The notes under the pieces were generated by a model. It was given only the letters and a program-made list of their open reading frames with translations. It was not told the DNA's origin and searched no databases. From NCBI GenBank assembly GCA_963708135.1, contig OY970192.1:1792001-1856000 (forward strand): a DNA stretch of 64,000 bases, written 5' to 3'. The stretch comes from an uncultured Gemmatimonadales bacterium. GTDB taxonomy: Bacteria; Gemmatimonadota; Gemmatimonadetes; Longimicrobiales; RSA9. This document shows, one piece after another, positions 18,220-62,879 of this stretch (positions within the stretch are counted from its first letter, which is position 1; each line of letters starts with the position of its first letter). The position numbers and the translations under genes are program-made.

Positions 18220-18288
18220 TTGACCTGCCGGCGCCAACGACACACCTTGCCGAAGGTCACCGAAAGGGCGTTTGGATTCTCTGTCCCT
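18220..18288 (+). mobile_element. Orphan, diverged ISCR oriIS end
   Basis: ttgacc...ccgaaagggcgtttggattctctgtccct versus ttgacc...ccgaaacggcgtttggatttcctatccct in the full elements. Confidence 0.75.
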
Positions 18289-18608
18289 GACGGCGCGCCG
18301 AACCCGGTGACCGCTTCGCGATCCACGCGCGCCTTCTGCGTGGAACAGGCCAGGTCGGGGACGGCCTCCCTGTACAGTCGTTTTCTGGGGATTCCCGCCG
18401 ACTCCCTCGACTCCCGGCGCGGTCACCTCAACCGCCGCATCTGGACGGGGCGCCTCGAGGAGATGGTGCCCCGCGAGCACATGGAAGCGGAGGTGGCGAG
18501 GCTGTGCGAAGCGCGCCGGGCGCAGTATTTCTCGGAAGTGACCGGCCGGGAGGACGCCCGCGCGCTGCGGGAGCGCGGGGACCGGGCCGGCTGACCGTGA
18601 AGGTGAGC

Positions 18609-19440
18609 ATGGACTACGACGCAGCGCTCAGGGTGCAGCCGGGAACCGCGCGGCTGGCGGACATCGATCCCGGGTTCGAGGCCGACCACCTGAGCAAGAA
18701 GGAGGCGAAGCTGGAGCTGGACCGCAAGCGCAAGAAGGTCCGCGACATCCAGGGCCTTCTGTACGCAACGCCGGTCCCTCCCTCCTCGTGTGCCTGCAGG
18801 GCCTGGACACCGCCGGCAAGGACGGGACGATCAACCTCGTATTCAGCGCCATGAACCTCCACGGGGTGCCGCGTGGCGGGAGTCAAGCAGCCCTCGGCCG
18901 AGGAGATGGCGCACGACCTCCTGTGGCGGATCCACCGGCACACTCCCGGCCTCGGCGAACTCGTGATCTTCAACCGCTCGCACTACGAGGACGTGCTCGT
19001 GGTGCGGGTGCACGACCTGGTCCCGAGGGACGAGTGGTCCGTGCGCTACGACCGGATCAACGACTTCGAGCGCGAGCTGACCAACCACGGGACCGTCGTT
19101 CTCAAGTTCTACCTCCACATCTCGCTGCGGGAGCAGCTCAAGCGCTTCCGGGACCGACTGGAGCAGCCGGACAAGCAGTGGAAGATCAGCGAGTCCGATT
19201 ACGCCGAGCGGCCGTACCGGGACGAGTACAGGCAGGCATACGAGGAGGCGCGGTCCCGGTGCTCCACCGAGCACGCGCCGTGGTTCGTGATCCCGGCCGA
19301 CAAAATGTGGTTCCGGAACCTGGCCATCGCGCACATCGTCGTCGAGCGGCTGCAGGCGCTCGGCCTGGGCTACCCGGAGCCCACCGTGGACCTGGACCAC
19401 ATCCGCCGCGAGTACCGCGACGCCGGGGGCCGCCGAGGCC
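18609..19440 (+). pseudogene. ppk2: Polyphosphate kinase 2 (PPK2) family, frameshifted
   Basis: LQGLDTAGKDGTI, FNRSHYEDVLVVRV and APWFVIPADK spread over three frames; native stop codon lost. Confidence 0.85.
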
Positions 19441-19506
19441 GTGGACGGGCGGGATGCGGCCGGTATGGCGCCGGCGGGGAGCGGCGCGGAAGGACCCGGA
19501 GGTTCG

Positions 19507-19899
19507 ATGACCGGCAGTCATCCGCCCCGGACGGCGCTCGGCTGGCTCGACTCGGCCAACCTCCTCGCCCAGGTGGTGGCGAAGAGCTACGGCCTGGACT
19601 TCTCCGGCCGCGCCGACCCGCCCAAGGAGCTCACGATGGCGGGCCGGTTCGCGGCGCCTCCCGCGCACCCGGGCCGCTGGCCGGCGCTCCGCGTGCCGCT
19701 CCCGGCCTCGGCGTTCTTCGCCACGAAAGCCGAGAGCTTGCGGACCGAATTCGAGCCGGGACACCCCCGCATCACGGAGCCGGCCGCGTCGCGGCGGGAC
19801 GCCATCGTAGCGGACGGTGTCGATCGACTGGCGCACTCCGTCAGGCCAGAGGCGGGGTCCTCGAGCTCGGGGCACGCGAAGCGAGGCACGCCCTCATGA
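19507..19899 (+). CDS. Hypothetical protein
   Basis: ggagg RBS before the ATG; stop overlaps the next start (atga). Confidence 0.5.
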   Translation: MTGSHPPRTALGWLDSANLLAQVVAKSYGLDFSGRADPPKELTMAGRFAAPPAHPGRWPALRVPLPASAFFATKAESLRTEFEPGHPRITEPAASRRDAIVADGVDRLAHSVRPEAGSSSSGHAKRGTPS

Positions 19900-21692
19900 G
19901 GTCGCTGGAGCTTCCCGACCGGGTCCCGCCGCTTTCGGGCTGGTTCCTGCAGATGTACCGCCTGGTGTGGATCGTGGTCGGCGCGGGCGCGGTCGCCAGC
20001 ATGGTCATGGCCTACCGGATGGAGGTCCGGGCGCAGGCCGCCGTCCGCGCCGAACACGATGTCGGGCTCGTAACGGAGGGAGTGGCTCCCGAAGGCGTGC
20101 GCGTGCGCCCGTTGGGTGGCATGGCGCGGCGCGCCGGAGTCCGCGACGGCAATGTGCTCCTTCGGGTCAACGGTGAGCCGGCGCGGGTCGAGGCCGTGCC
20201 GCTCGGCAGGATGCTCGACGGACCCGAAGGCGGAACGGTCGCGGTCACGCTGAAGCAGCTCGACGGCCGGGTCCAGGACGTCACGCTGGTCCGCAGCAGC
20301 GCCTACCTGCGTGACGCCTACGCCGGCAGCGGGCTGACGTTCGCCCGCCGCCGCTGGATCGAGTTCAGCATGAACATGCTGCAGATGGTGCTGATCTTCC
20401 TGGCGGCGATCCTGCTCTTCCTGCGGCGCTCGCGTGAATCGGTTGCGGCGATGTTGGCGTTGGCGCTGCTGCTGATGCTGATCTCCGAGCAGGGGCTAGG
20501 ACTACCGGCATGGACACAACGGGTCGGCCTGGCGTCATGGAGCGTCCTTTTTTCGCTGGGAATCCTGCTGTTTCCGGACGGACGCTTCGTGTCGCGCTGG
20601 ACATGGGCCGGCGTGGCGGTGAGCGCCGTTCAGACAGTGTACTTCGTGGCCGCACGCTACTACTCGCCCATCCTGGTCGTCATCCTCGGATCCTACCTCG
20701 CCACGCTGGCCGTGGCGGTGACCGTTCGCTACCGCAAGACGCCGCCGGGCACCGAGCGCCAGCAGATCAAGTACTTCGTCCTGGGCGTGGCGGGGTGGGC
20801 CGGCTGCTTCATCCTGTCCATGTTCGCCACGCCCGCGATGCGTTGGGTCACTGACGAAGGGAGCCGCGCCTGGCTCTTTCTGGCTCAGAACGCCGTCGAA
20901 GCGCTGGGAGACATCCTGCTCGGCCTCGGCCTGCTCACGTCGCTGCTGCGTTATCGGCTCTACGACGCCGACAGCGCCATCAGCCGCTCGGTGGCCATCG
21001 GAGCCCTGACGGTCACGATGGTCGCCATCTTCGCCGGCTCCGAGCAGCTCATAGGGGCCCTCGGCGAGCAGTATTTCGGCCAGGACCTGGGCATCATGGC
21101 GAGCGGGCTGGGCGCGGCGGTGGCGGCGGCCATGATCGCTCCCCTGCACCACCGCATGCACGCCTGGGCGGAGCGGCGCTTCCGCACCGGTCTGGCCCGT
21201 CTGCGCGACGATTTCCCGCTGCTGCTGGCGGACCTGAGGGAGACGATGTCGGTGCGCGGAATCGCCGAGACCGTGCTGGACGTGGTCCTGCCCGTGGTGC
21301 GAGCCACGCGTGGAGTCGTCGTAGTGGGCGGGGCGGTCGAGGCGACGCGGGAGGTCCTCGGCGAGGCGCTCGATCGCTGGCGTGCCGATTGGTCGTGGGA
21401 GTCAGAGTCAGGGCTCGCCATCGACGGTGGCGATTCGCTGCTGCCGGTGCGCGTGCTCCTGGAGGCGCCCGGCCACGGCGCCATGGGCTGGCTGCTGCTG
21501 GGCCCACGCCCGGACGGAAGCCTGTTCGGCAAGGACGAATGCGAAGCGCTGACGCGGCTCGCCGACCCGCTGGCGCGCGCGCTCGACATCGCCCGCCAAC
21601 GCGACGAGCGCGAGGCCGGGTACGAGCGCCGGATCGCCGCACTGGAGGCGGCCATCCGGCCGGGATCGGAACACGTCGGAAGAACTGCCTGA
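19896..21692 (+). CDS. Multi-pass membrane protein with a PDZ-like and a GAF-like domain
   Basis: ARRAGVRDGNVLLRVNG (PDZ-like), several TM helices, RQQIKY, RYRLYDAD and LGPRPDG. Confidence 0.75.
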   Translation: MRSLELPDRVPPLSGWFLQMYRLVWIVVGAGAVASMVMAYRMEVRAQAAVRAEHDVGLVTEGVAPEGVRVRPLGGMARRAGVRDGNVLLRVNGEPARVEAVPLGRMLDGPEGGTVAVTLKQLDGRVQDVTLVRSSAYLRDAYAGSGLTFARRRWIEFSMNMLQMVLIFLAAILLFLRRSRESVAAMLALALLLMLISEQGLGLPAWTQRVGLASWSVLFSLGILLFPDGRFVSRWTWAGVAVSAVQTVYFVAARYYSPILVVILGSYLATLAVAVTVRYRKTPPGTERQQIKYFVLGVAGWAGCFILSMFATPAMRWVTDEGSRAWLFLAQNAVEALGDILLGLGLLTSLLRYRLYDADSAISRSVAIGALTVTMVAIFAGSEQLIGALGEQYFGQDLGIMASGLGAAVAAAMIAPLHHRMHAWAERRFRTGLARLRDDFPLLLADLRETMSVRGIAETVLDVVLPVVRATRGVVVVGGAVEATREVLGEALDRWRADWSWESESGLAIDGGDSLLPVRVLLEAPGHGAMGWLLLGPRPDGSLFGKDECEALTRLADPLARALDIARQRDEREAGYERRIAALEAAIRPGSEHVGRTA

Positions 21693-21877
21693 GGCTGGAG
21701 ATCTCGTTCCCGGGCTCTTCGGCTCCCTCGAGCCCCGCGACTCGGCGCCCGCCGCATCACCGGCTCCTCCCCCGATCTCGGTCGAGACCGTCGGTCCGGT
21801 TGGCTCGACTCACTCCGCCCTGGCATCCCGACCAACACCGGCCGGATCGGGGGGCTCCTTCAAAGGACTTCGCATTC

Positions 21878-22534
21878 ATGCCATCGGAACGATCCGAAAC
21901 CCCGCCTGACGATCCCCTTGGTGGTCGACACCCGACCAGTCATGAACAGATGGCGGGACGGCCCTGGGGCGCGTCATACCACGACGGCCCTGCGCCCTGG
22001 GATATAGACCGACCGCAGCCAGCCATTGTCCGCCTGGCGTCCCAGGGGAGTGTTCGCGGGACCGTACTCGATGCCGGTTGCGGGACGGGCGAGAACACTC
22101 TTCACATCGCGTCGCTGGCATTGCCCGTTCTGGGGGTCAACGTGGCGGAAACCGCCATCGCCCGACGGAAGGCCGACGATCGTGGGATCGAAGTCGAGTT
22201 CGCCGCGGCCGACGCGCTCCACCTGGAGAGCCTGGAGCGCACATTCGAGACGGTGCTGGACTGCGGACTGTTTCACACATTCGACGCCGACGAGCGAGCG
22301 ACGTACGTGGCGAGTCTCGGATCGGTGACCGGGCGTAGTGGTACCCTGTACGTATTGTGCTTCAGTAACGAGGATCCCGATACGGGGCCCCACACGATCC
22401 GCCCGGACGAGCTGAGAGCGGCGTTCACCGCCGCCGGTGGATGGAGTATCGCCGAGCTGAGCGCGGAGCGCATCGAGACGCGATTTCACGACAACGGCGC
22501 ACCGGCCTGGTTGGCGACCATCCAAAGGATTTAG
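21878..22534 (+). CDS. Class I SAM-dependent methyltransferase
   Basis: PWDIDRPQP, VLDAGCGTGEN and DCGLFHTF motifs. Confidence 0.9.
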   Translation: MPSERSETPPDDPLGGRHPTSHEQMAGRPWGASYHDGPAPWDIDRPQPAIVRLASQGSVRGTVLDAGCGTGENTLHIASLALPVLGVNVAETAIARRKADDRGIEVEFAAADALHLESLERTFETVLDCGLFHTFDADERATYVASLGSVTGRSGTLYVLCFSNEDPDTGPHTIRPDELRAAFTAAGGWSIAELSAERIETRFHDNGAPAWLATIQRI

Positions 22535-22632
22535 GCGTGCGTGGGCGCGCGCCGGCGGACCTGGCAGCGCCTCGGCGGACCCTCGCGCGTGCAGCACCGC
22601 CGAGCGGCCCTTGGTGGCGCCGGGCGGCCTCC

Positions 22633-22792
22633 TCAGTCCTGCGGCGCCATCGGCAGCTCGCGCACGTGCCGGCCCGTGAGCGCGAACCAGGCGTTGGTGA
22701 GCGCCGGGGCGGCGGGTGGGAGGCCCGGCTCGCCGACCCCCCCCGGGTCCTCGCGGCTGTCCACGATGTGCACGTCGATCTCGGGCGCCTCC
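22633..22792 (-). pseudogene. C-terminal fragment of a xanthine dehydrogenase/IorB-type molybdopterin subunit (repeated at 43942 and 55599)
   Basis: EAPEIDVHIVDS..PGGVGEPGLPPAAPALTNA.FALTG.HVRELP. Confidence 0.85.
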
Positions 22793-22794
22793 AG

Positions 22795-22819
22795 TGGAGC
22801 CGGCGGGAGTCGAACCCGC
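22795..22819 (-). repeat. 25-bp duplicate of the tmRNA 3' end (att-like), copy 1
   Basis: tggagccggcgggagtcgaacccgc, identical to 62515-62539. Confidence 0.95.
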
Positions 22820-22888
22820 ACCAGATCCCCCACCCCCGGATCGCGATTCGCCAGTAACCGCAACAACTATGAGCGGTTTCGACCGTCG

Positions 22889-24760
22889 GGGTGTGGGCCG
22901 CCAGGTCCGGCGCTGACGGCCGGCGCGTTGTCCCGCTCCGCCATGGTGGTGCCCCGGGTCTCGTCGAACCCTTCGGGGCATGCCCACCGTCGCACGCCCC
23001 CGATCCGTTTGGGTCCCGCCGCAGGCACAGGCGCACCGCCCAGGGCACTCCGCAACGCCACCCGCCCAGGCCGCCGTTTACCGCCGACGACGGCCCACGG
23101 CCACGCCCCTCTACCCCATCGTCCAGCACCACATCGAGGGCTTCCTGGCCCGGGCCGCCGAAGCCGATCCCTGGGGCGAGGGCGTGGCCGGCTGGGTCGA
23201 GGCCGACTTCCGGGCCTACCTCCGCTGCGGCATCCTGGCCCACGGCTTCGCCCGCGTCCGCTGTGACGACTGCGCCGCCGAGCGCCTCGTCGCCTTCTCC
23301 TGCAAGGGCCGCGGCGTCTGCCCCTCCTGCAACGCCCGCCGGATGGTCGAGGTCGCCGCGCACCTGAACGACGCCGTCCTGCCGCCGCTCCCGATCCGCC
23401 AATGGGTCCTCTCCGTCCCGAAGCGGATCCGCCCCTTCTTCCACCACGATCCCGCCCTTGCCGGCGCCGTGCTCCGGATCCTGCTCCGGGCCGTCCGCAC
23501 CCGCCTGCGTCACGGCAGTCCCGGTGCCGGCCCGGACGCGCAGATCGGCGCCGTCTCCTTCCTCCACCGCTTCGGCTCCGCCCTCAATCCCCACTTCCAC
23601 TTCCACGTCGTGGTTCTCAATGGCGTCTTCACCGGGACCGTGGACGGCGAGGTCCGCTTCGATGAGGCGACCCACTTTTCCGCCGACGACGCCTCCGCCC
23701 TCACGCCCGTCCTCCAGCGCCGCATCCTGCGCCTCTTCCAACGCCGCGGCCTCCTCGAGGAGCACACGGTGAACGACATGCTCACCTGGCAGGGCACCGG
23801 CGGCTTCAGCCTCGACGCCTCCGTCCGCATCCACGGCGCCGACCGGGCCGGCCGCGAGCGCCTCCTCCGCTACTGCGCCCGGCCGCCGTTTGCCCTCGAT
23901 CGCCTGCGGATCGAGCGTCAGTCCGGAGGGCGGGCCGACGACGACGCGGGGGTCCGCCGCGTGTTCTACCGACCCTCCCGGCCCACCTCCGACGGACGCG
24001 CTCTCCTCGCCCTCTCACCCCTCCAGTTTCTGGAAGCACTTTCCCAGCTGATCCCGCCGCCCCGGGTTCACCGCCACCGCTACCACGGCGTTCTCGCCCC
24101 CAACGCACGGCTCCGGCCCCGGGTCGTCGCCCTCGAACGCGACGCAGAGGCCCACGCGGACGAAGCCCACGGCGAGGGGCCCGGGGTCCACACCCACAAC
24201 GAGCCCGCTACCACCCTCACCGGCGCCGCCGCCCGCTCCCGCTGGGCCCAGCTCCTCGCCCGCATCTACGAGGTCTTCCCCCTCCGCTGCCCCGAGTGCG
24301 GCTCGCAGATGCGCATCATCGCTTTCCTCACCGACCCCGCGCCCGTGGGCGCCATCCTCCGACATCTCGACCTGCCCCATACCACACCGCCGCTCTCCCC
24401 CGCACGCGCTCCACCCCAAGTCGCCTTCGACCTCGACGCCGATTCCGTGCGCGCGATGCCGAAACAGGATCCCGTGCCGGCGGAAGACTTCGACCAGACG
24501 CCCGGCTTGGACGCGGCCGACCCCGAGCCCGTACCCGAGCTCGACCTCGACCAGACCCGCGGAGTCTGAGGGGCGGAGCCACGCCTGACACCCGCCTGAC
24601 GCAGCAGTCTCCACTCCATCGCCTCGGTTCGGCTCGGTTCGGCTTGCTCTCCGGCCCTCAAACCCTCCCACCCGTCCATCACGAGCACCCTTGACGCCTC
24701 GATCCCCAACCACGCACCCTACCGAAACCGGCCGAAACGGCGTTTGGATTTCCTATCCCT
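22889..24760 (+). mobile_element. ISCR/IS91-like element, copy 1 (variant 3' end)
   Basis: Left boundary shared with copy 2; ends in oriIS-like ggcgtttggatttcctatccct; no terminal IRs or TSD. Confidence 0.9.
22980..24569 (+). CDS. ISCR-type HUH rolling-circle transposase
   Basis: Zn motif CDDC...FSCKGRGVCPSC, HUH motif PHFHFH, RLLRYCARP and C-terminal CPECG. Confidence 0.92.
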   Translation: MPTVARPRSVWVPPQAQAHRPGHSATPPAQAAVYRRRRPTATPLYPIVQHHIEGFLARAAEADPWGEGVAGWVEADFRAYLRCGILAHGFARVRCDDCAAERLVAFSCKGRGVCPSCNARRMVEVAAHLNDAVLPPLPIRQWVLSVPKRIRPFFHHDPALAGAVLRILLRAVRTRLRHGSPGAGPDAQIGAVSFLHRFGSALNPHFHFHVVVLNGVFTGTVDGEVRFDEATHFSADDASALTPVLQRRILRLFQRRGLLEEHTVNDMLTWQGTGGFSLDASVRIHGADRAGRERLLRYCARPPFALDRLRIERQSGGRADDDAGVRRVFYRPSRPTSDGRALLALSPLQFLEALSQLIPPPRVHRHRYHGVLAPNARLRPRVVALERDAEAHADEAHGEGPGVHTHNEPATTLTGAAARSRWAQLLARIYEVFPLRCPECGSQMRIIAFLTDPAPVGAILRHLDLPHTTPPLSPARAPPQVAFDLDADSVRAMPKQDPVPAEDFDQTPGLDAADPEPVPELDLDQTRGV

Positions 24761-24763
24761 CGC

Positions 24764-25381
24764 ATGACGCCGCACGAGCTGCATGCCGCGCTGGACGGCG
24801 GCGCCGTGCTGCTCGACCTGCGCACCCCGCGGCCGTTCGCCGCCGAGCACGTGCCCGGCGCCGTGAACCTCCAGTTCAACCGCGCCGACCTGGCCGAGCG
24901 CGCCGAGATGATGCTGCCCATGGACGTGCCGCTGGTCGTCCACGCCGAGCCCGAGCCGATCGCGAAGATCGCCGCGAAGCTGCTGGCCGACGCCGGCTAC
25001 GACGTGCGCGGCTGGCTCGACGGCGGACTCGTCGCCTGGAAAAATGCCGGCTTCGAGACCGCCACGACGCCCGTGCTCACCGTGGACGAGCTGGAGGGGA
25101 GGCTGGGCGAGGTGCAGGTCGTGGACGCGCGCGAGCCGTTCGAGTACCGCTACGGCCACATCCCCGGCGCCGTGCTGCTGCCCTACACGGATGCGTGGGG
25201 GAAGAGCGGCGCGCTGCCGGCGGGCAGGCCCCTCGCCGTGGTCTGTGGCGACGAGGTGCGCAGCGCCGCCCTCGCCTCGCTGCTCCAGCGCGACGGCCGC
25301 GACGTGCGCCTCGTCACCGGCGGCACGACCGACTGGCTGGCGCGGGGGTTCGCGGTGGTGAAGGGCGCGCCGCCAGCTTAG
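24764..25381 (+). CDS. Tandem rhodanese-like domain protein
   Basis: LDLR...HVPGAVN and DARE..EY..GHIPGA; starts 3 bp after the oriIS end. Confidence 0.9.
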   Translation: MTPHELHAALDGGAVLLDLRTPRPFAAEHVPGAVNLQFNRADLAERAEMMLPMDVPLVVHAEPEPIAKIAAKLLADAGYDVRGWLDGGLVAWKNAGFETATTPVLTVDELEGRLGEVQVVDAREPFEYRYGHIPGAVLLPYTDAWGKSGALPAGRPLAVVCGDEVRSAALASLLQRDGRDVRLVTGGTTDWLARGFAVVKGAPPA

Positions 25382-25457
25382 CCTGGCGGCGACTACTCGA
25401 CGCAAGCAAGCCGCAGTTCAAGTGCCGCAGTCCAAGGTTGACACATTCATCGGCTCC

Positions 25458-26779
25458 CAGTACTGTCCGGTTAAGCTGAGATGATGATGCCGTAACGGAT
25501 TGCTACATGGTGCGTTACGACGTTTTGGTTGCCGCACCGATTTGAACTTCGCTCCTGCGCCGCTATCCTGCCCGGACCCCCCGGCCGGAGTAGCGCATGA
25601 ATCCCGGAAGCACGGTTTTCTCACAGGTGATGGCCCACGCATCTCGCTTCGCGCTCGATCGGTGCATCCGCCGCTACCACGGCAACCGGAGGGTCCGACG
25701 TTTCTCGTGTCGGGACCAGTTCCTCGCCATGGCCTTTGCCCAGCTCACCTACCGGGAGAGCCTGCGGGACCTCGAGGCCACCCTCGGGGCGGCCCCCGAG
25801 AAGCTGTACCATCTTGGCTTCCGTTCGCCGCTCTCTCGCAGCACGCTCGCCGATGCGAACGAGAATCGCGACTGGCGCATCTACGCCGATTTCGCTCAAC
25901 GCCTGATCGCAGACGCGCGTCGGCTCTACGCCGACGACACGTTGGGGATCGAGCTCACGAACACCGTCTACGCGCTGGATTCCACCACGATCGACCTGTG
26001 TTTGTCGCTGTTCCCCTGGGCCTCGTTTCGTACGAGCAAAGGCGGCGTGAAGCTGCATACACTGCTCGACTTGGCAGGCAGGATCCCCGCCTACGCCTGG
26101 ATCACGGACGCGAGCACCCACGATGTGCGCATCCTCGATGCGCTTATCCCGGAGCCCGGATCGATCTACGTCCTGGACCGCGGCTACGTCAACTTCGCCC
26201 GGCTCTACCGACTCGATCAGCACCGGGCCACCTTCGTCGTTCGCGCCAAGGCAAACCTCAAGTTCAACCGGCTCTCCTCAGGACCCGTCGATCGCACCAC
26301 CGGCGTCTTCTGTGATCAGATCATCCGCCTTGCGCTGCCCCGGTCTGCCAGGGCCTATCCCGACCGGCTTCGCCGCGTGCGTTTCAAGGACGCAGGGTCC
26401 GGGCAGGACCTCGTCCTTCTGACCAACAACGTCGCGCTGCCCGCCGTTACCGTGGCCGAGCTCTACCGCCTGCGGTGGCAGATCGAGCTCTTCTTCAAAT
26501 GGATCAAGCAGCACCTCAGGATCAAGCGCTTCTTCGGCACGAGCGCGAACGCTGTGCGCACGCAGATCTGGATCGCGATCAGCGTTTACGTCCTCGTCGC
26601 GATCGTCCGCAAGCGGCTCCGGATCGAGCGCGAACTCTACACAATTCTACAGATCCTGAGCGTCTATGCGTTCGAGAAAGCCCCTCTCGCACAAGTACTT
26701 ACGCGTTCGGCCTACACCCCCGAAGTCCCCTCCGATCGTAACCAGTTGTCGCTCTTCAACTTGTGACCGGACACTACTG
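25458..26779 (+). mobile_element. IS4-family element
   Basis: Inverted ends cagtactgtccggt / accggacactactg; 9-bp TSD atcggctcc. Confidence 0.95.
25597..26766 (+). CDS. IS4-family transposase (DUF4372 + DDE)
   Basis: YALDSTTIDL, LDRGY and YRLRWQIELFFKWIKQHL motifs. Confidence 0.95.
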   Translation: MNPGSTVFSQVMAHASRFALDRCIRRYHGNRRVRRFSCRDQFLAMAFAQLTYRESLRDLEATLGAAPEKLYHLGFRSPLSRSTLADANENRDWRIYADFAQRLIADARRLYADDTLGIELTNTVYALDSTTIDLCLSLFPWASFRTSKGGVKLHTLLDLAGRIPAYAWITDASTHDVRILDALIPEPGSIYVLDRGYVNFARLYRLDQHRATFVVRAKANLKFNRLSSGPVDRTTGVFCDQIIRLALPRSARAYPDRLRRVRFKDAGSGQDLVLLTNNVALPAVTVAELYRLRWQIELFFKWIKQHLRIKRFFGTSANAVRTQIWIAISVYVLVAIVRKRLRIERELYTILQILSVYAFEKAPLAQVLTRSAYTPEVPSDRNQLSLFNL

Positions 26780-26893
26780 ATCGGCTCCGTATATTTTTTG
26801 TCATCCCGCTGCTGCGCAGGCGCCCCACAGTCGTTCTCTGCATGGTGTCCCGCAGTGTCCCCAATCAGCTACACGATACGTGGACACGCCGAC

Positions 26894-53893: not shown

Positions 53894-53905
53894 AAAAAAT
53901 ATTTT

Positions 53906-54811
53906 CAGTACTGTCCGGTTAAGCTGAGATGATGATGCCGTAACGGATTGCTACGTGGTGCGTTACGACGTTTTGGTTGCCGCACCGATTTGAACTTCGC
54001 TGCTGCGCCGCTATCCTGCCCGGACCCCCCGGCCGGAGTGGCGCATGAATCCCGGAAGCACGGTTTTCTCACAGGTGATGGCCCACGCATCTCGCTTCGC
54101 GCTCGATCGGTGCATCCGCCGCTACCACGGCAACCGGAGGGTCCGACGTTTCTCGTGTCGGGACCAGTTCCTCGCCATGGCCTTTGCCCAGCTCACCTAC
54201 CGGGAGAGCCTGCGGGACCTCGAGGCCACCCTCGGGGCGGCCCCCGAGAAGCTGTACCATCTTGGCTTCCGTTCGCCGCTCTCTCGCAGCACGCTCGCCG
54301 ATGCGAACGAGAATCGCGACTGGCGCATCTACGCCGATTTCGCTCAACGCCTGATCGCAGACGCGCGTCGGCTCTACGCCGACGACACGTTGGGGATCGA
54401 GCTCACGAACACCGTCTACGCGCTGGATTCCACCACGATCGACCTGTGTTTGGACCAACGACGTCGCGCTGCCCGCCGTTACCGTGGCCGAGCTCTACCG
54501 CCTGCGGTGGCAGATCGAGCTCTTCTTCAAATGGATCAAGCAGCACCTCAGGATCAAGCGCTTCTTCGGCACGAGCGCGAACGCTTTGCGCACGCAGATC
54601 TGGATCGCGATCAGCGTTTACGTCCTCGTCGCGATCGTCCGCAAGCGGCTCCGGATCGAGCGCGAACTCTACACAATTCTACAGATCCTGAGCGTCTATG
54701 CGTTCGAGAAAGCCCCTCTCGCACAAGTACTTACGCGTTCGGCCTACACCCCCGAAGTCCCCTCCGATCGTAACCAGTTGTCGCGCTTCAACTTATAACC
54801 GGACACTACTG
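53906..54811 (+). mobile_element. IS4 element, copy 2, with an internal deletion of about 416 bp
   Basis: Same ends as 25458-26779; 9-bp TSD aaatatttt; deletion junction near 54451. Confidence 0.95.
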
Positions 54812-54826
54812 AAATATTTTCTAAAT

Positions 54827-55507
54827 TTACTTTTCTTCCTCGCCTTTTTCTTTCTTTTCTTTCTTCTCTTCCTTTTCTTCGCCTTCCTCGCCTTCGGCTT
54901 CCTCTTTGCCTTCCTTCTTCACGCCCTCAACGGCTTCTTCGAGATCTACCTCGGTCGGCTGGGCCAATTCTGCTTCGAGCTCTTCTTCGGACTTCGGCGG
55001 CTGGACGGCGGCGACGGTCATCTCCGGATCATCCACCAGAATCTCCACCTTACTGTGGTCCACCGGCAAATCCTTGACGCGGATGGCGTCCTCGAAATTT
55101 TTCAAAGCCGAAATATCCACGACAATCTCCGAAGGCAGGTCGCCCGGCAAGCTCTCGACTTCGACTTCATAAAGAGTCGGCACGAAAGTGCCCTGCAGTT
55201 CTTTGACCGCCGGAGATTCGCCGACGAATTCGATCGGCACGGTGGCCGTCAGTTTTTCCGCCATATTCACCTGGTAAAAATCCACGTGCGTAATCTGGCC
55301 TCGGGTGATGTGCTTCTGAATGTCTTGGATCAAGACCTTGACCGGCTCGGTCTCCCCCACTTGCAGGCCGACGATAGTGCTCTCGCCGGCGTCACGATAG
55401 ATTTTTTCAAAATCACCCGCCGGCACGGACAAGGAACGCGCCTCGATCCCGTGCCCGTACAGAACCCCGGGGATATAGCCGGCGTGGCGAAGTCCTTTCG
55501 CTTTTTC
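54827..55507 (-). pseudogene. rplY: 50S ribosomal protein L25 (Ctc-type), 5'-truncated, foreign composition
   Basis: GYIPGVLYG, HVDFYQV, VPIEFVGESPAVK, LPGDLP and an acidic/Lys tail; no start codon. Confidence 0.9.
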
Positions 55508-55854
55508 TGGGCGCGCGCCGGCGGACCTGGCAGCGCCTCGGCGGACCCTCGCGCGTGCAGCACCGCCGAGCGGCCCTTGGTGGCGCCGGGCGGCCTCCTC
55601 AGTCCTGCGGCGCCATCGGCAGCTCGCGCACGTGCCGGCCCGTGAGCGCGAACCAGGCGTTGGTGAGCGCCGGGGCGGCGGGTGGGAGGCCCGGCTCGCC
55701 GACCCCCCCCGGGTCCTCGCGGCTGTCCACGATGTGCACGTCGATCTCGGGCGCCTCCAGTGGAGCCGGCGGGAGTCGAACCCGCACCAGATCCCCCACC
55801 CCCGGATCGCGATTCGCCAGTAACCGCAACAACTATGAGCGGTTTCGACCGTCG
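55508..55854 (+). repeat. Third copy of the IorB-fragment / tmRNA-end segment (matches 22542-22888)
   Basis: Near-identical sequence; contains the 25-bp tmRNA end at 55761-55785. Confidence 0.95.
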
Positions 55855-57707
55855 GGGTGTGGGCCGCCAGGTCCGGCGCTGACGGCCGGCGCGTTGTCCC
55901 GCTCCGCCATGGTGGTGCCCCGGGTCTCGTCGAACCCTTCGGGGCATGCCCACCGTCGCACGCCCCCGATCCGTTTGGGTCCCGCCGCAGGCACAGGCGC
56001 ACCGCCCAGGGCACTCCGCAACGCCACCCGCCCAGGCCGCCGTTTACCGCCGACGACGGCCCACGGCCACGCCCCTCTACCCCATCGTCCAGCACCACAT
56101 CGAGGGCTTCCTGGCCCGGGCCGCCGAAGCCGATCCCTGGGGCGAGGGCGTGGCCGGCTGGGTCGAGGCCGACTTCCGGGCCTACCTCCGCTGCGGCATC
56201 CTGGCCCACGGCTTCGCCCGCGTCCGCTGTGACGACTGCGCCGCCGAGCGCCTCGTCGCCTTCTCCTGCAAGGGCCGCGGCGTCTGCCCCTCCTGCAACG
56301 CCCGCCGGATGGTCGAGGTCGCCGCGCACCTGAACGACGCCGTCCTGCCGCCGCTCCCGATCCGCCAATGGGTCCTCTCCGTCCCGAAGCGGATCCGCCC
56401 CTTCTTCCACCACGATCCCGCCCTTGCCGGCGCCGTGCTCCGGATCCTGCTCCGGGCCGTCCGCACCCGCCTGCGTCACGGCAGTCCCGGTGCCGGCCCG
56501 GACGCGCAGATCGGCGCCGTCTCCTTCCTCCACCGCTTCGGCTCCGCCCTCAATCCCCACTTCCACTTCCACGTCGTGGTTCTCGATGGCGTCTTCACCG
56601 GGACCGTGGACGGCGAGGTCCGCTTCGATGAGGCGACCCACTTTTCCGCCGACGACGCCTCCGCCCTCACGCCCGTCCTCCAGCGCCGCATCCTGCGCCT
56701 CTTCCAACGCCGCGGCCTCCTCGAGGAGCACACGGTGAACGACATGCTCACCTGGCAGGGCACCGGCGGCTTCAGCCTCGACGCCTCCGTCCGCATCCAC
56801 GGCGCCGACCGGGCCGGCCGCGAGCGGCTCCTCCGCTACTGCGCCCGGCCGCCGTTTGCCCTCGATCGCCTGCGGATCGAGCGTCAGTCCGGAGGGCGGG
56901 CCGACGACGACGCGGGGGTCCGCCGCGTGTTCTACCGACCCTCCCGGCCCACCTCCGACGGACGCGCCCTCCTCGCCCTCTCACCCCTCGAGTTTCTGGA
57001 AGCACTTTCCCGACTGATCCCGCCGCCCCGGGTTCACCGCCACCGCTACCACGGCGTTCTCGCCCCCAACGCACGGCTCCGGCCCCACGTCGTCGCCCTC
57101 CAACGCGACGCAGAGGCCCACGCGGACGAAGCCCACGGCGAGGGGCCCGGGGTCCACACCTACAACGAGCCCGCTACCACCCTCACCGGCGCCGCCGCCC
57201 GCTCCCGCTGGGCCCAGCTCCTCGCCCGCATCTACGAGGTCTTCCCCCTCCGCTGCCCCGAGTGCGGCTCGCAGATGCGCATCATCGCTTTCCTCACCGA
57301 CCCCGCGCCCGTGGGCGCCATCCTCCGACATCTCGACCTGCCCCACACCACACCGCCGCTCTCCCCCGCACGCGCTCCACCCCAAGCCGCACTCGCGCTC
57401 GACGCCGAGCCCCTCGCACCCGCCGATGCCCTGCCCCGCGACGACTTCGACCAGACGCCCGCGTTCGATCCGGCTGACCCCGAGCCCCTACCCGAGCTCG
57501 ACCTCGACCAGACCCGCGGCGCCTGAACGGCCAGGTGCGCCCGGCAACCGCTACAGGCGCCAGGTCACACCCACATCCGATGCCGAATCGACCGGAACCT
57601 CCACCCAATCCCGCTCGCCCGCCCATCACCCCCACCCTTGACCCGGCGAAACCACCCCGCCTATCCTACCGAAAGCAGCCGAAACGGCGTTTGGATTTCC
57701 TATCCCT
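55855..57707 (+). mobile_element. ISCR element, copy 5
   Basis: Near-identical to the other copies; oriIS ends at 57707. Confidence 0.92.
55946..57526 (+). CDS. ISCR-type HUH transposase
   Basis: Same motifs as copy 1. Confidence 0.92.
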   Translation: MPTVARPRSVWVPPQAQAHRPGHSATPPAQAAVYRRRRPTATPLYPIVQHHIEGFLARAAEADPWGEGVAGWVEADFRAYLRCGILAHGFARVRCDDCAAERLVAFSCKGRGVCPSCNARRMVEVAAHLNDAVLPPLPIRQWVLSVPKRIRPFFHHDPALAGAVLRILLRAVRTRLRHGSPGAGPDAQIGAVSFLHRFGSALNPHFHFHVVVLDGVFTGTVDGEVRFDEATHFSADDASALTPVLQRRILRLFQRRGLLEEHTVNDMLTWQGTGGFSLDASVRIHGADRAGRERLLRYCARPPFALDRLRIERQSGGRADDDAGVRRVFYRPSRPTSDGRALLALSPLEFLEALSRLIPPPRVHRHRYHGVLAPNARLRPHVVALQRDAEAHADEAHGEGPGVHTYNEPATTLTGAAARSRWAQLLARIYEVFPLRCPECGSQMRIIAFLTDPAPVGAILRHLDLPHTTPPLSPARAPPQAALALDAEPLAPADALPRDDFDQTPAFDPADPEPLPELDLDQTRGA

Positions 57708-58069
57708 CCGGCTTCCTCCACATCGGGGCGTGGCAATCATCCGTTCACGCGAAGCCGCAAAGCGCCGAAGGCAGTACACCGGTGTGTTGGGAACCTGCGT
57801 ACCGACGGCCCGTCCTGTGGCATGGATCCCAGCCATACCCGCCGAGTTCGGTTTTCTAGGTTGCGGGATTCGCGCCTTCGGCCCGTGCTGCCTTCGCGTG
57901 AACCGAGTGGAAGGACGCCCCCGAAGCCCGCGGTTGGCCGAGGGATGTCGCTCCGCCTCCTCCGCCACTCCGCGCGAACCGCGGATGTGTGAAGCGGGAC
58001 GAAGCGGGAACATGGATGCGTGCGCCGCACGGTTGCATCCTTGGCGGGACCCACTTCCGGAGAATCTTC

Positions 58070-60706
58070 ATGATGCGCCACGCCTGCCGCCGGGTGCTCC
58101 TCCTCCTGCTCTCGAGCAGCATGTCCCTGGCCGCCCAGACCCCATCCTCCCCCCGCGTCCGCCTCTCGCTGAACGAAGGGTGGCGCTTCTTCGCGGGCGA
58201 CGTCGCCGGCGCGGACGCCCCGGCCTTCGACGATGCCGCCTGGGCTCGCGTGGACCTGCCCCACACCTGGAACGCGAGCGACGCCCTGCGCAAGGAGCCG
58301 GAGTACCGCCGGGGCGCCGGCTGGTACCGGCGTCGCCTGGAGGTCACGCCGGCGATGACGGGCAAGCGCCTGTTCCTCTACTTCGAGGGCGCGAACCAGG
58401 TCGCGGACGTGTGGGTGAACGGGAAGTCCGCCGGGCGACACGTGGGCGGATACACGGCCTTCGCCATGGACGTGACGGACCTCGTCGTCCCCGGCACGAA
58501 CGTCGTGGCGGTTCGCGTGGACAACTCCTTCGACCCGGACATCCCGCCGCTCAGCGCCGACTTCACCTTCTACGGCGGCCTCTACCGCAACGTCTGGCTG
58601 CTGGCGACGGATCCCCTTCACGTCACCGTCCTCGACCACGCGTCGCCGGGCGTCTTCGGCGACGTGCCGGCCCTGGCGTCCGGGCGCGCGGCGGTGCGCG
58701 TGCGCGGCACCATTGCGAACGACGGCGCGGCGAAGCGCACCGCCCGCGTGGTCACGCGCGTCGTGGACGGCGACGGCGGCGAGGTGGCGACGGCGTCCTT
58801 CGACGTCCCCGTCGGCCCCCGTGCGACGGCGGCCTTCCAGCGGACGCTGCCGCCGATCACGGCGCCCAGGCTGTGGTCGCCGGACGAGCCCAACCTGTAC
58901 ACGCTGCGCACGGAGGTCCTCGACGGTGCCCGCCTGGCCGACCGCGTGGACGCGCCGCTCGGGCTGCGCTGGTACGCGTGGGATGCGCAGAAGGGCTTCT
59001 CCCTCAACGGCAAGCCCTACCAGCTGCATGGCACGAACCGGCACCAGGACGTGCGCGGGCTGGGGAACGCGCTGCCGGACGCGCTGCAGCGCCGCGACGT
59101 CGCCCTGGTGAAGTCCACCGGCTTCGACTTCCTGCGCCTCGCCCACTACCCGCAGGCGCCCGCGGTGCTGGACGAGGCCGACCGGACCGGCGTCGCGCTC
59201 TGGGAGGAGATCCCGGTCGTCAACACGATCACCATGTCGGAGGCGTTCGCCGCCAACGCCGAGCGCATGGTGACCGAGATGGTGAAGCAGCACTACGACC
59301 ACCCGTCGGTGCTGTTCTGGGGCTACATGAACGAGATCATGCTCGTGCCCCCGAAGCCGATGCCGGCCGGGTACGTGGACGCCGTCGTCGCACTGGCGAA
59401 GCGGCTGAACGCGCGCGTGAAGGCGGAGGACACCACGCGCCCGACCGTCATGGCCGTGTTCGGGCACGACACCACTTCCGCGCTACACGCGGTGCCGGAC
59501 ATCCTCGGGCTGAACCTGTACTTCGGCTGGTATTACGGGGCGCTGCCGGACTTCGGCGCGTACGTGGACTCGCTGCACGCCGCCTACCCCGGCAAGCCGC
59601 TCATGATCAGCGAGTACGGCGCGGGCGACGACGAGCGCATCCACGCGGCGTCGCCCCGGCGGCTGGACTTCTCGACCGAGTACGAGCAACGCTACCACGA
59701 GGGGACGTTCCCCCAGGTCCTCGCCCGGCCGTGGCTGCTCGGCAGCGCGCTCTGGAACCAGTTCGACTTCGGCTCCTGGAACCGCAACGACGTGCAGCCA
59801 ATGGTCAACGACAAGGGACTCTTCTACTTCGATCGCCGGCCCAAGGATGTGGCCTACTACTACATGGCCCGCCTGCGACGCGACCCCGTCCTGCACATCG
59901 CCGTCCGCGACTGGCCGGCGCGCGCCGGCAGCACGCCCGCGGACCGGACGACCGAGGTGGTCGTGTACAGCAACGCGTCTTCCGCATCACTCGCGTTGGA
60001 TGGGACGGCGCTGGGCGAGCGGCCGGTCCAGAACGGCCGCGCTTCCTGGGAGGTGATCCTGCACGACGGCGAGAACCGGCTGGAGGCGCGTGCGAGCTTC
60101 CAGGGGCGGGAGCTCACGGACGCGGCGGTGGTGCGCTACCGGGATCGGAGCACCCTGTTCGCCAGGCCTGATGTTTCCCCCGCGACGGCGCCTGCTGCCG
60201 CCCCGTCGGCGCCGGGCACGGCGTTCCGCTTCCCGCCCGCCGCCGAGATCGCCGTCAACGTGGGCGCCACCTGGCAGTTCATCGACCGCGCCGGCGTCAC
60301 CTGGGAGCCGGATCGCGCATACACGCCCGGGAGTTGGGGCTGGGTCGGCGGCGGCGCCCCCGCCTCAACTAACCACCGCATCTACGACACGGCCGACGAT
60401 CCGCTCCTGCAGACCGCCCGCGAGGGCGCCGCCGCCTGGCGCTTCGACGTGCCCGACGGTCGCTACGAGGTCGAGCTGCGCTTCGTCGAGACGCTGCACG
60501 ACAACCCCGGGGAGCGCGTCTTCGACGTGGACGTGAACGGCCTCACTCTGGCCGAGAGGCTGGACCTCGCCGCGGTGCCCGGCCGCTGGCACGCGCGCAC
60601 GGTGGTGGTGGAGGTGGACGCCGCGGACGGGCACGGAATCGTGGCGAAGCTGAGCGCGCGGGCGGGGACGACGACCATCAGCGCGATCCGGGTGACGCGC
60701 CGCTGA
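58070..60706 (+). CDS. Glycoside hydrolase family 2 (beta-galactosidase-like) with a C-terminal malectin-like domain
   Basis: Signal peptide, LYFEGAN, YGGLYR, GTNRHQD, RLAHYPQ, YMNE, ISEYG and RVFDVDVNG. Confidence 0.92.
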   Translation: MMRHACRRVLLLLLSSSMSLAAQTPSSPRVRLSLNEGWRFFAGDVAGADAPAFDDAAWARVDLPHTWNASDALRKEPEYRRGAGWYRRRLEVTPAMTGKRLFLYFEGANQVADVWVNGKSAGRHVGGYTAFAMDVTDLVVPGTNVVAVRVDNSFDPDIPPLSADFTFYGGLYRNVWLLATDPLHVTVLDHASPGVFGDVPALASGRAAVRVRGTIANDGAAKRTARVVTRVVDGDGGEVATASFDVPVGPRATAAFQRTLPPITAPRLWSPDEPNLYTLRTEVLDGARLADRVDAPLGLRWYAWDAQKGFSLNGKPYQLHGTNRHQDVRGLGNALPDALQRRDVALVKSTGFDFLRLAHYPQAPAVLDEADRTGVALWEEIPVVNTITMSEAFAANAERMVTEMVKQHYDHPSVLFWGYMNEIMLVPPKPMPAGYVDAVVALAKRLNARVKAEDTTRPTVMAVFGHDTTSALHAVPDILGLNLYFGWYYGALPDFGAYVDSLHAAYPGKPLMISEYGAGDDERIHAASPRRLDFSTEYEQRYHEGTFPQVLARPWLLGSALWNQFDFGSWNRNDVQPMVNDKGLFYFDRRPKDVAYYYMARLRRDPVLHIAVRDWPARAGSTPADRTTEVVVYSNASSASLALDGTALGERPVQNGRASWEVILHDGENRLEARASFQGRELTDAAVVRYRDRSTLFARPDVSPATAPAAAPSAPGTAFRFPPAAEIAVNVGATWQFIDRAGVTWEPDRAYTPGSWGWVGGGAPASTNHRIYDTADDPLLQTAREGAAAWRFDVPDGRYEVELRFVETLHDNPGERVFDVDVNGLTLAERLDLAAVPGRWHARTVVVEVDAADGHGIVAKLSARAGTTTISAIRVTRR

Positions 60707-62203
60707 TCGTGGGCGGGCCAGCGGAGGGCCGCAGCGGGAGAGCCGGCCCCCCGCTCCCCCCTGCCGGGCACCGGTGCCGGTCGGTCGCCGGTCCGCCGCG
60801 GCGATCCAGCTGCCGCGCCAGCTGCGGGTTGGGCAATCCGGACGTGCCGTCGATCCTCGCCGGCAGCTCCTTGACGGGCCGTCCGAGCAGCCGATAGCCG
60901 CCGTAGAAATCGTTCGTGTACACCGTCCGCGGCCAGGGGCGGGAGCGGATGCGCGCGGCCTCCACGCGCCACGCGCGCGCCGCGTACCCCCGACCCTCCC
61001 GATGGGTCGCGAGCGCCTCGCGCGCGCCGGCCGCCGCGCGCAGGCCGAAGAGGGCGACACACGCGCCCAGCGCCAGCGCGAGACCCGGCAGCGGCGGCGT
61101 TCCGCGGACGCCGCCCATCCGGCGGCGGCGACCCCGACGAGCAGGTACAGCCCCGGCAGCAGCGGCGAGAGAAGGCGCGCATCCATCGGCGTGGCTGCGT
61201 CCACCACCGAGATGGATACCACCAGGAAGAGCAGGTACGCTGCCCCGAACGCGGTCCAGATCGCCAGCTCACCCCGGTCGCAGGAGCGCCAGCGGCGGCG
61301 CACGCCCACGATCAGCCATGCGGCCACGAGGGCGCAGACGGCGGCCATGAGCAGGTGCGGGGACGGATCGGGGACGAGCCAGAACGCCACGGTGCGCATC
61401 CCTTCCAGCACCTGCGTCGCGCCCAGCGGATGCCACGCCAGCGTCCGGTTCGTGGCGCTGCCGCCCGCCAGCCGATTCCGCGCGAGCCAGAGCGCGAGCG
61501 GGAGCGCGCTCACCACCGTCCAGGTGAGCGCCTCGCCCAGGCGCCGTCGCCACGGCCACCCCGGCCGCAGCAGCAGGACCGCTCCCCCGACGCCGATCAC
61601 GACCACGCCCGCGTACCTGAGCAGCACGCCCGCCGCCGCGAAGGCCGCGCCTGCAAGCAATGCCTTGCGATTGCCGTTCGCGGCTAGCCGCAGGAAGTAC
61701 AGGGCCCACACCAGCACCAGCAACGCGGGCACATCCGTCCAGGCGCGTGTGCTGAGCGCGAGCGCCGGACCGCCGAACGCGAGCAACCCGGCTGAGATCA
61801 GCCCCGCCAGCCGTGAGCGGGCCGTGCGCAGCGCCACCCACCCAACGGACCCCACCAGGGCCGCGAACGCCACGATCGCCAGGCAGCGCGCGCCTGCCTC
61901 CACCGGCAGGCTCAGCATCAGCAAGGCGGCGAGCAGGGACGAATAGAGCGGCGGGAAGTGCGTCACCGGCGCAGGAACACCGTTCGGCGCGATCGCGATG
62001 AAGCCGTTACCGCCAGCGAGGTGCCTGGCAGCGTCGAGATAGATGATGCTGTCGGGCGTGAGGCCGATCCCGGAGGACGTCACGAATAGCGCGGCCAGCG
62101 CGGCCAGAATCACAAGCGCGAACAACGCGGCGTAGTAACTCCGGTCGGCGCGTGCCGCGGCGACGTGATCGCCCCCCGGATGAGGGGGGGACAGGGTAGG
62201 CAC
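60678..62203 (-). pseudogene. GT-C/PMT-like membrane glycosyltransferase, frameshift near 61100
   Basis: TPDSIIYL, HFPPLYS, many TM helices and DARLLSP; the tail continues in another frame. Confidence 0.7.
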
Positions 62204-62469
62204 GATGTCCTCGGGGCAGGGCTGGATCGCGCACGGCCGTAAAGCCGAGTACGAAGAGGTCCGGGCGTGTGCCGTCCGGGTCCTTAGCAATTTCGCGCTA
62301 CCGGCTTCGCACCGTCAACGGTTCAGTGGATGGAAGGCCCGCCGACAAGGCCATGGCATGCCGCTCCCCGGAGCCTGCGGCACCACCGTCCCCGCCACAC
62401 GGCCGTCCTCGAGGATCCGGACGCAGAACCCACAAGACGGGGACGCGGGTGAGACGGAGTCGAGCGCCG

Positions 62470-62509
62470 GAAAACGAACGCGCCCGGCGATCCGAAGATC
62501 ACCGGGCGC
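62470..62509 (-). terminator. Terminator downstream of ssrA
   Basis: On the minus strand: gcgcccggtgatc-ttcg-gatcgccgggcgc followed by gttcgtttt. Confidence 0.75.
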
Positions 62510-62514
62510 TTCAA

Positions 62515-62879
62515 TGGAGCCGGCGGGAGTCGAACCCGCGTCCGCGAATCGATCCCTCAGTGCATCTACGTGCGTAGTCCACCGTTCTCAGTTTCTCGCT
62601 CCCTCATCGGCCGGTGGACGGCCCCGTCGGGAACCAGCCTCGCTGTGTCTCATCCGGCCGCGGCAAGGCGGCACGACCGGACCAGCCCGATTTGTCGATG
62701 CCTCTGGTCACGCCTCGGGCCCGGCCCGTCCAGAGACAGGTTGCGAAAGGTCAGACCTTACGCAGCCAGCGCCATGTTTGAGTTGGCACTTGTGATGTTT
62801 TCCCGCTGGTTTTACGAGGGCACGGGTCCTCGGCACGCGACACCGACTTCACGAAACACGTCGAAACCAGGTCGGCCCC
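62515..62879 (-). ncRNA. ssrA: tmRNA
   Basis: 5' GGGGCCGACCTGGTTTCGAC, 3' GGTTCGACTCCCGCCGGCTCCA, about 365 nt; tag ORF ANSNMALAA* at 62758-62787. Confidence 0.97.

Follow-up and report, generated by a model that had tools for sequence, protein, structure and literature searches.

What process could have set six co-oriented ends of one rolling-circle transposon, each joined to different DNA, downstream of a tmRNA gene in a region that carries no integrase? The locus lies in a 64,000-nucleotide stretch (the window; positions 1,792,001–1,856,000 of contig OY970192.1) of a single-contig genome, here called G000, of 5.45 Mb and 72% GC, the chromosome of a soil member of the Gemmatimonadaceae. The element is a previously undescribed HUH/Y2 rolling-circle transposon of 1,863 bp, belonging to the ISCR clade of the IS91 family, and its copies form an array pointing toward ssrA, the tmRNA gene. 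We consider it probable, if well short of certain, that the array was built by ISCR1-like one-ended rolling-circle transposition and tandem accretion, and that a scar of the tmRNA 3′ end found in three copies was captured and carried along. None of the literature matches listed described a link between IS91 elements and tmRNA, and none of those on gemmatimonads, mostly resistome surveys, described an IS91-type element like that of G000.

IS91-family elements start at one end, oriIS, and end at the other, terIS, upstream of the transposase gene tnpA, according to the available part of PMC13181058. The copies, their remnants and the tmRNA gene are arranged as follows in the window.

547–601, + strand: remnant of ISCR tnpA, matching element positions 705–759
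622–662, − strand: remnant of ISCR tnpA, matching element positions 1233–1273
18217–18288, + strand: oriIS0, a 72-bp remnant of an oriIS end, not a full copy
22393–22541, + strand: flank of copy A, comprising the last 149 bp of a methyltransferase gene (21389–22534) plus spacer
22542–24760, + strand: copy A, consisting of a 347-bp upstream block (22542–22888) and the ISCR body (22889–24760)
22980–24569, + strand: tnpA of copy A, 529 amino acids
36482–38344, + strand: copy B, complete and of canonical form (1,863 bp), with its oriIS ending at 38344
36583–38163, + strand: tnpA of copy B, 526 amino acids
39766–41032, + strand: copy C, rearranged and 5′-truncated, with oriIS intact
41042–43704, + strand: IS21-family element (istA 41263–42834, istB 42904–43581)
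43712–46050, + strand: copy D, consisting of an A-type flank, a 346-bp block (43852–44197) and the ISCR body (44198–46050)
44289–45869, + strand: tnpA of copy D
55508–57707, + strand: copy E, consisting of a 347-bp block (55508–55854) and the ISCR body (55855–57707)
55946–57526, + strand: tnpA of copy E
62515–62879, − strand: ssrA, with the tag ANSNMALAA

The 22-mer GGCGTTTGGATTTCCTATCCCT ends exactly, with 0 mismatches, at 24760, 38344, 41032, 46050 and 57707, and with 3 mismatches at 18288. All six ends are on the + strand and aim at ssrA, as the original prediction had claimed, and the ten bases 3′ of each are unrelated to one another, in line with its further statement that every end is fused to a different sequence. 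Only three further matches to the 22-mer occur in the rest of the genome, with 3–4 mismatches each, at 3.846 and 4.787–4.788 Mb. The predicted concentration of copies near ssrA was borne out genome-wide, since a single degenerate fragment, at 3.845 Mb, is the only Y2_Tnp match that falls outside the window. The sole traces of the family outside the window are that degenerate fragment with its oriIS-like end (3,845,430–3,846,386, +) and two oriIS-like ends 784 bp apart (4,787,217–4,788,087, −). Within the window, the tnpA remnants at 547–662 indicate that the ISCR-affected zone extends almost to its start, and oriIS0 is 93% identical to the oriIS end of an ssrA-adjacent ISCR fragment in a related genome, G012.

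Four intact open reading frames of 526–529 amino acids match the Pfam families Zn_Tnp_IS91 (E ~1e-17) and Y2_Tnp (E ~1e-23), a fifth tnpA reading frame is truncated, and an H-F-H motif is visible in the protein sequence. The top NCBIfam match is the ISCR element clade Ia (E 2e-83, 280.5 bits), which agrees with the ISCR/IS91 HUH identity assigned at the outset; the protein is 46–50% identical to IS91/ISCR transposases on proteobacterial plasmids. The element runs from terIS (GTGTGGGCTTGG...) upstream of tnpA to oriIS (...GGATTTCCTATCCCT) downstream of it, the terminal letters of oriIS being ...CCTATCCCT. Four junctions in three genomes fix terIS, namely copy B of G000, which has an intact terIS beginning GTGTGGGCTTGGGTGTGGGCC, one copy in G051 and two in G012. 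All four start GTGTGGGCTTGGGTGTGG after unrelated left flanks, and this defines both terIS and the length of 1,863 bp. The oriIS end, or near-matches to it, also occurs in G012, G188, G187, G190 and G037.

Neither a target-site duplication nor terminal inverted repeats were found, the ten bases on either side of copies A, B, D and E being unrelated, as predicted for the duplications. A search for an IS91-type target tetranucleotide (GTTC/CTTG type) next to oriIS gave none among the flanks checked in G000 and its relatives; the four adjacent bases are GACG, CGCA, TCGA, CACG, GACG and CCGG in G000 and CCTT, CAGC and CGTG in the relatives. A subterminal hairpin at terIS likewise received no support, with a fold energy no better than that of shuffled sequence.

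The copies are 98–99.7% alike. Copy B has neither an upstream block nor a tmRNA scar. Copies A, D and E are without the first 10 nt of terIS, and the shared 347-bp upstream block stands there instead, containing the ssrA scar, ~20 nt resembling the ssrA terminator and ~85 nt also present in the G012 copy. The 253 bp to the left of the scar show no similarity to the DNA downstream of ssrA (score 22 versus 21.1 ± 2.7 for shuffles) and no match in the ssrA loci of relatives. Copies A and E have the identical left border (22542 = 55508), which in A falls just past the stop codon of the methyltransferase gene. Copy D carries more: the 149-bp flank of A, the 3′ end of the methyltransferase gene, is repeated to the left of its block, with 9 of those base pairs at 41033–41041, and such a duplication upstream of D marks the 149 bp as a co-mobilized flank.

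Copy C is a composite of element positions 1381–1622 (39766–40007) followed by 1175–2200 (40007–41032). The IS21-family element that now separates it from D is bounded by a 7-bp duplication, CGATCCG, at 41035–41041 and 43705–43711, and splits the joint between the oriIS of C and the flank of D. When the IS21 element and its duplication are subtracted, the last base of the C oriIS abuts the first base of the 149-bp flank, and it is with this subtraction that the earlier description of the end at 41032, as fused to the element's own upstream flank, holds. An oriIS joined to its own upstream flank has the look of a rolling-circle product that overran its terminator. In IS91-family elements termination fails in 1–14% of events, no duplications are made and oriIS–terIS circles are formed, as stated in the part of PMC13181058 that was available. 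One-ended transposition co-mobilizing DNA beyond terIS would be represented in G000 by footprints only.

The mechanism that we favor would proceed as follows. Replication would start at oriIS and run back through tnpA. Where terIS is damaged there would be no proper stop, and copies A, D and E would move by one-ended transposition, dragging upstream DNA with them. Incoming units would then become attached, without intervening bases, to the oriIS of a copy already in place (the C–D joint is an example), either (i) by insertion at the nick site of the resident oriIS or (ii) by recombination of a circle with the resident copy. Either route would yield a head-to-tail array with foreign DNA between the copies, the outcome already suggested for the ISCR1 of complex class 1 integrons; the ISCR model is reportedly reviewed in Toleman 2006. 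The scar, made up of the ssrA 3′ end and ~20 nt of terminator, would have been taken up in a related genome, by an ancestral copy that lay within an ssrA-linked island, ~85 nt from its far end, and carried along with the element ever since. The accretion by rolling circles that was originally predicted is in this sense supported by the loss of terIS, by captured DNA of two lengths and by the C–D joint, whereas the import of cargo by circles is not shown.

The DNA between and around the copies has the following content.

17676–18220: IS256 transposase fragment, left neighbor of oriIS0
24761–36481: DNA between copies A and B, 65.7% GC
24764–25381: rhodanese gene, between A and B
25458–26780: IS4-family element, between A and B
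26847–29173 and 29490–35838: duplicated subtilase segment, 93–96% identity
36175–36393, − strand: C-terminal DUF819 fragment, between A and B
38345–39765: DNA between copies B and C, 61.7% GC, with no family match in any frame
46051–55507: DNA between copies D and E, which includes an M20 peptidase fragment and an NHL-repeat gene
46051–46890 (50% GC) and 50451–51054 (47% GC): AT-rich DNA split by two IS1380 copies
46891–48660 and 48681–50450: IS1380 pair, 1,770 bp each, 99.8% identical, head to tail and 20 bp apart
53034–53809: Phd/PIN toxin–antitoxin pair, between D and E
53906–54812: deleted IS4 copy, between D and E
54830–55510, − strand: second copy of ribosomal protein L25/Ctc, 5′-truncated, with a Glu/Lys-rich tail, 54% GC
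57708–62514: DNA from the oriIS of E to ssrA, 71.8% GC, the genome average, including the ssrA terminator hairpin
57989–60706, + strand: GH2 glycosidase
60365–62290, − strand: PMT_2 glycosyltransferase

The segments between the copies have GC contents of 47–69% against 72% for the genome, and the low-GC zone spans ~3–58 kb of the window and stops exactly at the oriIS of E. The region is a low-GC, IS-ridden accessory region without an integrase that ends at this oriIS, 4.8 kb from ssrA. Six other IS families are present, IS1634, IS256 (a fragment), IS4 (two copies), IS1182, IS21 (two copies) and IS1380 (two copies), and the second subtilase copy is interrupted by the IS1182 element and an IS21 element. 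Gene fragments are common (PPK2, DUF819, M20 peptidase, DUF4145 and L25), and the description of the cargo as coming from diverse sources fits this compositional heterogeneity and wealth of fragments. No resistance genes were recognized in the array. The native L25 gene lies at 880,701 of the genome; for the second copy, the closest Atlas clusters are from Chloroflexota and a candidate phylum, which offers a lead, and only a lead, to its origin. A close homologue of the GH2 gene (75% identity) was found in one of the 30 relatives searched, and a comparison of the GH2, PMT_2, methyltransferase and PPK2 genes with the ssrA regions of relatives gave no syntenic matches.

The individual labels given to the downstream sequences in the original prediction fared unevenly. 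The rhodanese gene after 24760 and the GH2 gene after 57707 are as named. What follows 18288, named there as a gene fragment, is PPK2 with a frameshift; the end that precedes it is itself just the 72-bp remnant. A helicase C-terminus after 38344 finds no counterpart, as 0 of 16 frames of at least 55 amino acids in 38301–39746 matched Pfam at E ≤ 0.01 and the two longest had no NCBIfam match. The integron cassettes placed after 46050 are equally unsupported: the window has no integrase, 0 inverted repeats were detected in 46000–46950 and one weak pair in 50400–51100, and the AT-rich DNA there contains just a zinc-ribbon reading frame and the DUF4145 fragment. The suggested analogy with an integron has no integron parts behind it.

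Several smaller features of the cargo may be recorded here. The rhodanese reading frame begins 4 nt beyond the end of oriIS A, a position that brings to mind the outward promoters in the oriIS of ISCR1, and part of the rhodanese region is duplicated (25247–25427 versus 29230–29412, 83% identity). The IS4-family sequences (53906–54812 and 25458–26780) have ~56× word depth in soil-metagenome contigs against 2–9× for neighboring unique DNA, indicating that the IS4 element is multi-copy or widespread in that soil community.

A number of observations weigh against the mechanism that we favor. The transposase scores below the curated NCBIfam cut-offs, at 280.5 versus 925 bits for ISCR clade Ia and 96.1 versus 125 for the IS91 equivalog, which by these profiles makes it a distant member and not an equivalog of the named ISCRs. 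The body of D is nearer to that of E (99.3%) than to that of A (98.1%) and is without the divergent 3′ end of A, whose final 190 bp are a variant of 79% identity; D would accordingly not be a plain copy of present-day A, and gene conversion has to be assumed, with which the mosaic pattern of the differences agrees. Most of the differences among copies are non-synonymous (9 versus 3 and 8 versus 3). The left end of E truncates the foreign L25 gene, whose lost start was not found on the right of E; no simple history accounts for this, and one has to suppose later deletions between the direct repeats or exchanges among them. The DNA between the copies cannot be credited to ISCR on this evidence and may have been there beforehand, six other IS families occupying the same region. 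Neither transposition, nor a circle, nor a spanning read was observed; the public reads comprise three DNA runs, with contigs of one study at low depth and no RNA run listed, and none of the contigs that could be placed bridges an ISCR junction. The best public match of the window DNA is a soil-metagenome run that may be the source sample of the assembly.

The strongest competitor is a different history, in which an old, tolerant island near ssrA served as a junkyard for insertion sequences. A 2.2-kb unit of block plus ISCR would have hopped locally a few times, deletions and exchanges between the direct repeats would have scrambled the flanks, and ISCR itself would have carried no cargo. The six other IS families with their nested and tandem insertions, the many gene fragments and the low GC over ~3–58 kb are what such an island would hold, and the exact left border shared by A and E is as expected of a fixed-length unit. 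Sequence exchange between copies is also documented, as the amino-acid differences among the four tnpA reading frames are mosaic. Untargeted hopping, however, would not be expected to produce the C–D joint, where an incoming unit abuts exactly the terminal base of an oriIS already present, and the longer flank of D implies variable termination. Neither E nor B lies inside a gene with halves on both sides, B not being flanked by two halves of one gene; the continuity of frames across the removed copies was uninformative, as frames are open by chance at 68% GC. Finally, the uniform orientation of all six ends, which is shared by most clusters in relatives, needs a directional process; as regards a replication-strand cause, the GC skew of G000 is too noisy to place origin and terminus. 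We regard this history as possible and, on balance, unlikely.

The second competitor concerns the scar. The exact 25-nt tmRNA 3′ end (62515–62539) recurs at 22795–22819, 44104–44128 and 55761–55785, in the same orientation and nowhere else in the genome, so that the claim of a tmRNA 3′ end upstream of three copies (A, D and E) is confirmed to the base; each scar lies 160 bp upstream of tnpA. If the 25-nt core were an attachment site, units could have been moved into the vicinity of ssrA by recombination over short homologies, or by an integrase specific for tmRNA genes and supplied in trans; the direct repeats of the ssrA 3′ end in the three copies would speak for this. The scar-to-ISCR junction is found in G012 as well, and the scar flanks resemble the ssrA flanks of the family. 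More specifically, they resemble the ssrA flank of their own host, at 13 of 25 positions in G000 (p = 0.024) and 14 of 25 in G012 (p = 0.001), versus 8 of 25, the chance level, across hosts. In G012 a 67-bp repeat of the ssrA end and flank (86.6% identity) brackets a 6.2-kb ISCR-bearing insert, and short direct duplications of the ssrA 3′ end occur 125–6,300 bp downstream of ssrA in G004 (locus L049), G005 (L002), G006 (L004) and G012 (L032), which identifies ssrA as a busy integration site in the family. There is also a precedent in the CR2-sul2 unit (PMC9376610, in its available part).

Against attachment-site-driven accretion stands, in the first place, the want of an enzyme. No Phage_integrase match was found in the window, the seven in the genome all being elsewhere, and no tyrosine integrase was detected near ssrA in G012, G051, G187 or G014. 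The 64 nt downstream of G000 ssrA match the flank behind a displaced second ssrA 3′ fragment in G004; G000 ssrA thus keeps its ancestral flank, and nothing has integrated at its core. All three scars sit in the identical 347-bp block, which fits copying rather than separate integrations. The junction is moreover rare, being present in 2 of 401 genomes of the order (G000 and G012). In 60 metagenome loci the scar-to-ISCR 22-mer occurred with ISCR in none, all 60 being ordinary tRNA-like genes of other organisms. The arrays of G051 and G187 have no scar, the G051 copy being 91% identical to the G000 element. This scarcity argues for a scar captured within one lineage, as opposed to a device of general targeting. 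We therefore consider accretion through the 25-nt core decidedly improbable; the scar looks like an attR-type remnant that was captured once in a sub-lineage and imported, to judge from these alignments.

How often ISCR elements are found downstream of ssrA can be judged from related genomes, for which the tallies take in the unpublished genomes G015, G016, G020, G043 and G147; G015 is also one among many identical ssrA 3′ ends compared, and none of the conclusions depends solely on these five. In 4 of the 12 genomes that could be assessed (G000, G051, G012 and G187), relatives of the element occur no more than 40 kb downstream of ssrA; in the other eight (G133, G021, G065, G145, G009, G416, G571 and G447) they are not adjacent to it. 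Every placed copy aims at ssrA in G000, G051 and G012, and in G187 three fragments point toward it and one away. Because the genomes are few and related, this recurrence is a lead and not a statistic. Co-oriented clusters with intervening DNA are present in G051 (3 copies), G187 (3 of 4) and G009, G133, G188 and G121 (2 each), those of the last four lying away from ssrA; orientation is mixed in G190 and G145. No tRNA genes were found near the non-ssrA clusters in the stretches examined. The original view of the array as tmRNA-anchored is thus met halfway by the clusters downstream of ssrA in four genomes, whereas in G000 itself the array halts 4.8 kb away, at oriIS E, and the ssrA flank is ancestral.

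G187 is from a different family and has an ISCR of only ~50% identity; no Y2_Tnp match was obtained in its congeners G274 and G315. The G187 locus (L034–L036, G187:C1:3652000-3700000) holds a second, divergent ISCR lineage downstream of ssrA, with three 5′-truncated copies that keep oriIS, and the cargo there includes beta-lactamase-family (PF00144), metallo-hydrolase, PIN and histidine-kinase genes. In another comparison, homologues of genes 3–19 kb downstream of ssrA in G009 and G014 lie ~205–250 kb from ssrA in G000 (1,601,800–1,650,000, with ssrA at 1,854,515) in conserved order. GC across that G000 interval is mostly genome-like, which makes a rearrangement as likely as a giant island.

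These positions raise the further question of whether the scar is more than a passenger, that is, whether ISCR units in the Gemmatimonadales are repeatedly delivered just downstream of ssrA without a resident integrase. Delivery could occur through short-homology recombination with the invariant 25-nt ssrA end, through a trans-acting integrase or through a locus preference of the HUH transposase. We give this proposal little chance of being correct; were it true, ssrA would serve as a platform on which foreign genes accumulate by way of a rolling-circle transposon instead of an integrase. An assembly artefact, in which a 2-kb repeat was wrongly joined or multiplied during metagenome assembly, might be suspected in a single-contig metagenome assembly whose repeats are 98–99.7% alike and whose ISCR junctions are bridged by none of the public contigs that could be placed, but it is highly implausible given that substitutions, truncation point and flanks are peculiar to each copy, that the IS21 element with its clean 7-bp duplication in the C–D joint is a biological signature and that similar arrays are present in independent assemblies.

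One-ended transposition with tandem accretion thus remains the reading that we prefer, and it gives the locus an interest beyond its own genome. To our knowledge, ISCR elements are known almost solely from resistance regions of clinical proteobacteria. Free of antibiotic selection and set in an unrelated soil phylum, the G000 array would be a natural record of read-through: an intact reference copy can be compared with three that have lost 10 nt of terIS, the co-mobilized flanks are of graded length and an oriIS-to-flank joint is preserved. The defined ends together with the pair of intact and damaged terIS provide ready constructs with which to test termination. Read-through of this kind by ISCRs is still disputed, according to the available part of PMC9376610. 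The recurring integrase-free position downstream of ssrA is a separate lead on how accessory DNA gathers at tmRNA genes.

Among known systems, integrase-borne islands at tRNA and tmRNA genes share with G000 the direct repeats of the gene 3′ end and the low-GC accessory DNA downstream of ssrA; they differ in that G000 has no integrase, its repeats lie inside transposon copies and the native flank was not displaced. Eukaryotic Helitrons move by rolling-circle HUH transposition, read through weak terminators and capture gene fragments. The fragments in the G000 cargo, L25, DUF819, M20 and DUF4145 included, recall this behavior, but the G000 protein lacks a helicase domain, the setting is bacterial and the element is not a member of the Helitron group. 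With IS91, IS801 and IS1294 the element has in common its domain architecture, distinct oriIS and terIS, the lack of duplications and, as we would read the array, one-ended transposition (PMC13181058, available part). It has neither their GTTC/CTTG tetranucleotide nor orf121, and falls below the NCBIfam IS91 cut-off.

A closer parallel is the CR2-sul2 unit of GIsul2, in which, as described in the available part of PMC9376610, the island integrase acts on an att site that lies 119 bp upstream of the ISCR2 gene. The att-like sequence of G000 is similarly placed, 160 bp upstream of tnpA, and in both cases units accumulate beside the attachment gene of an island. In the CR2-sul2 case, however, an integrase was shown to move the unit there, whereas G000 has none in the window and its ssrA core is unoccupied.

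The closest likeness is to ISCR1 of complex class 1 integrons. In the parts of PMC13393415 and PMC10819877 available, ISCR1 is likewise an IS91/ISCR element with a HUH transposase, it has lost terIS, and it always carries part of the integron 3′-conserved segment (3′-CS), a fixed upstream piece whose place in G000 is taken by the 347-bp block. In both systems the upstream piece is partly duplicated at differing lengths, varied DNA is joined exactly to oriIS and the arrays are head to tail; for the tandem units of ISCR1 the model proposed in PMC10819877 (available part) is a circle entering a resident copy. The differences are that (i) the G000 protein is a chromosomal one of soil Gemmatimonadaceae, at just 46–50% identity to the plasmid ISCR/IS91 transposases, (ii) each G000 unit has a different cargo without recognized resistance genes, whereas amplified ISCR1 arrays repeat one unit and (iii) what was captured upstream is an attR-like ssrA scar in place of an integron segment. 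The G000 array looks like the work of a new family member behaving like ISCR1, a known process in a new phylum rather than a new kind of system.

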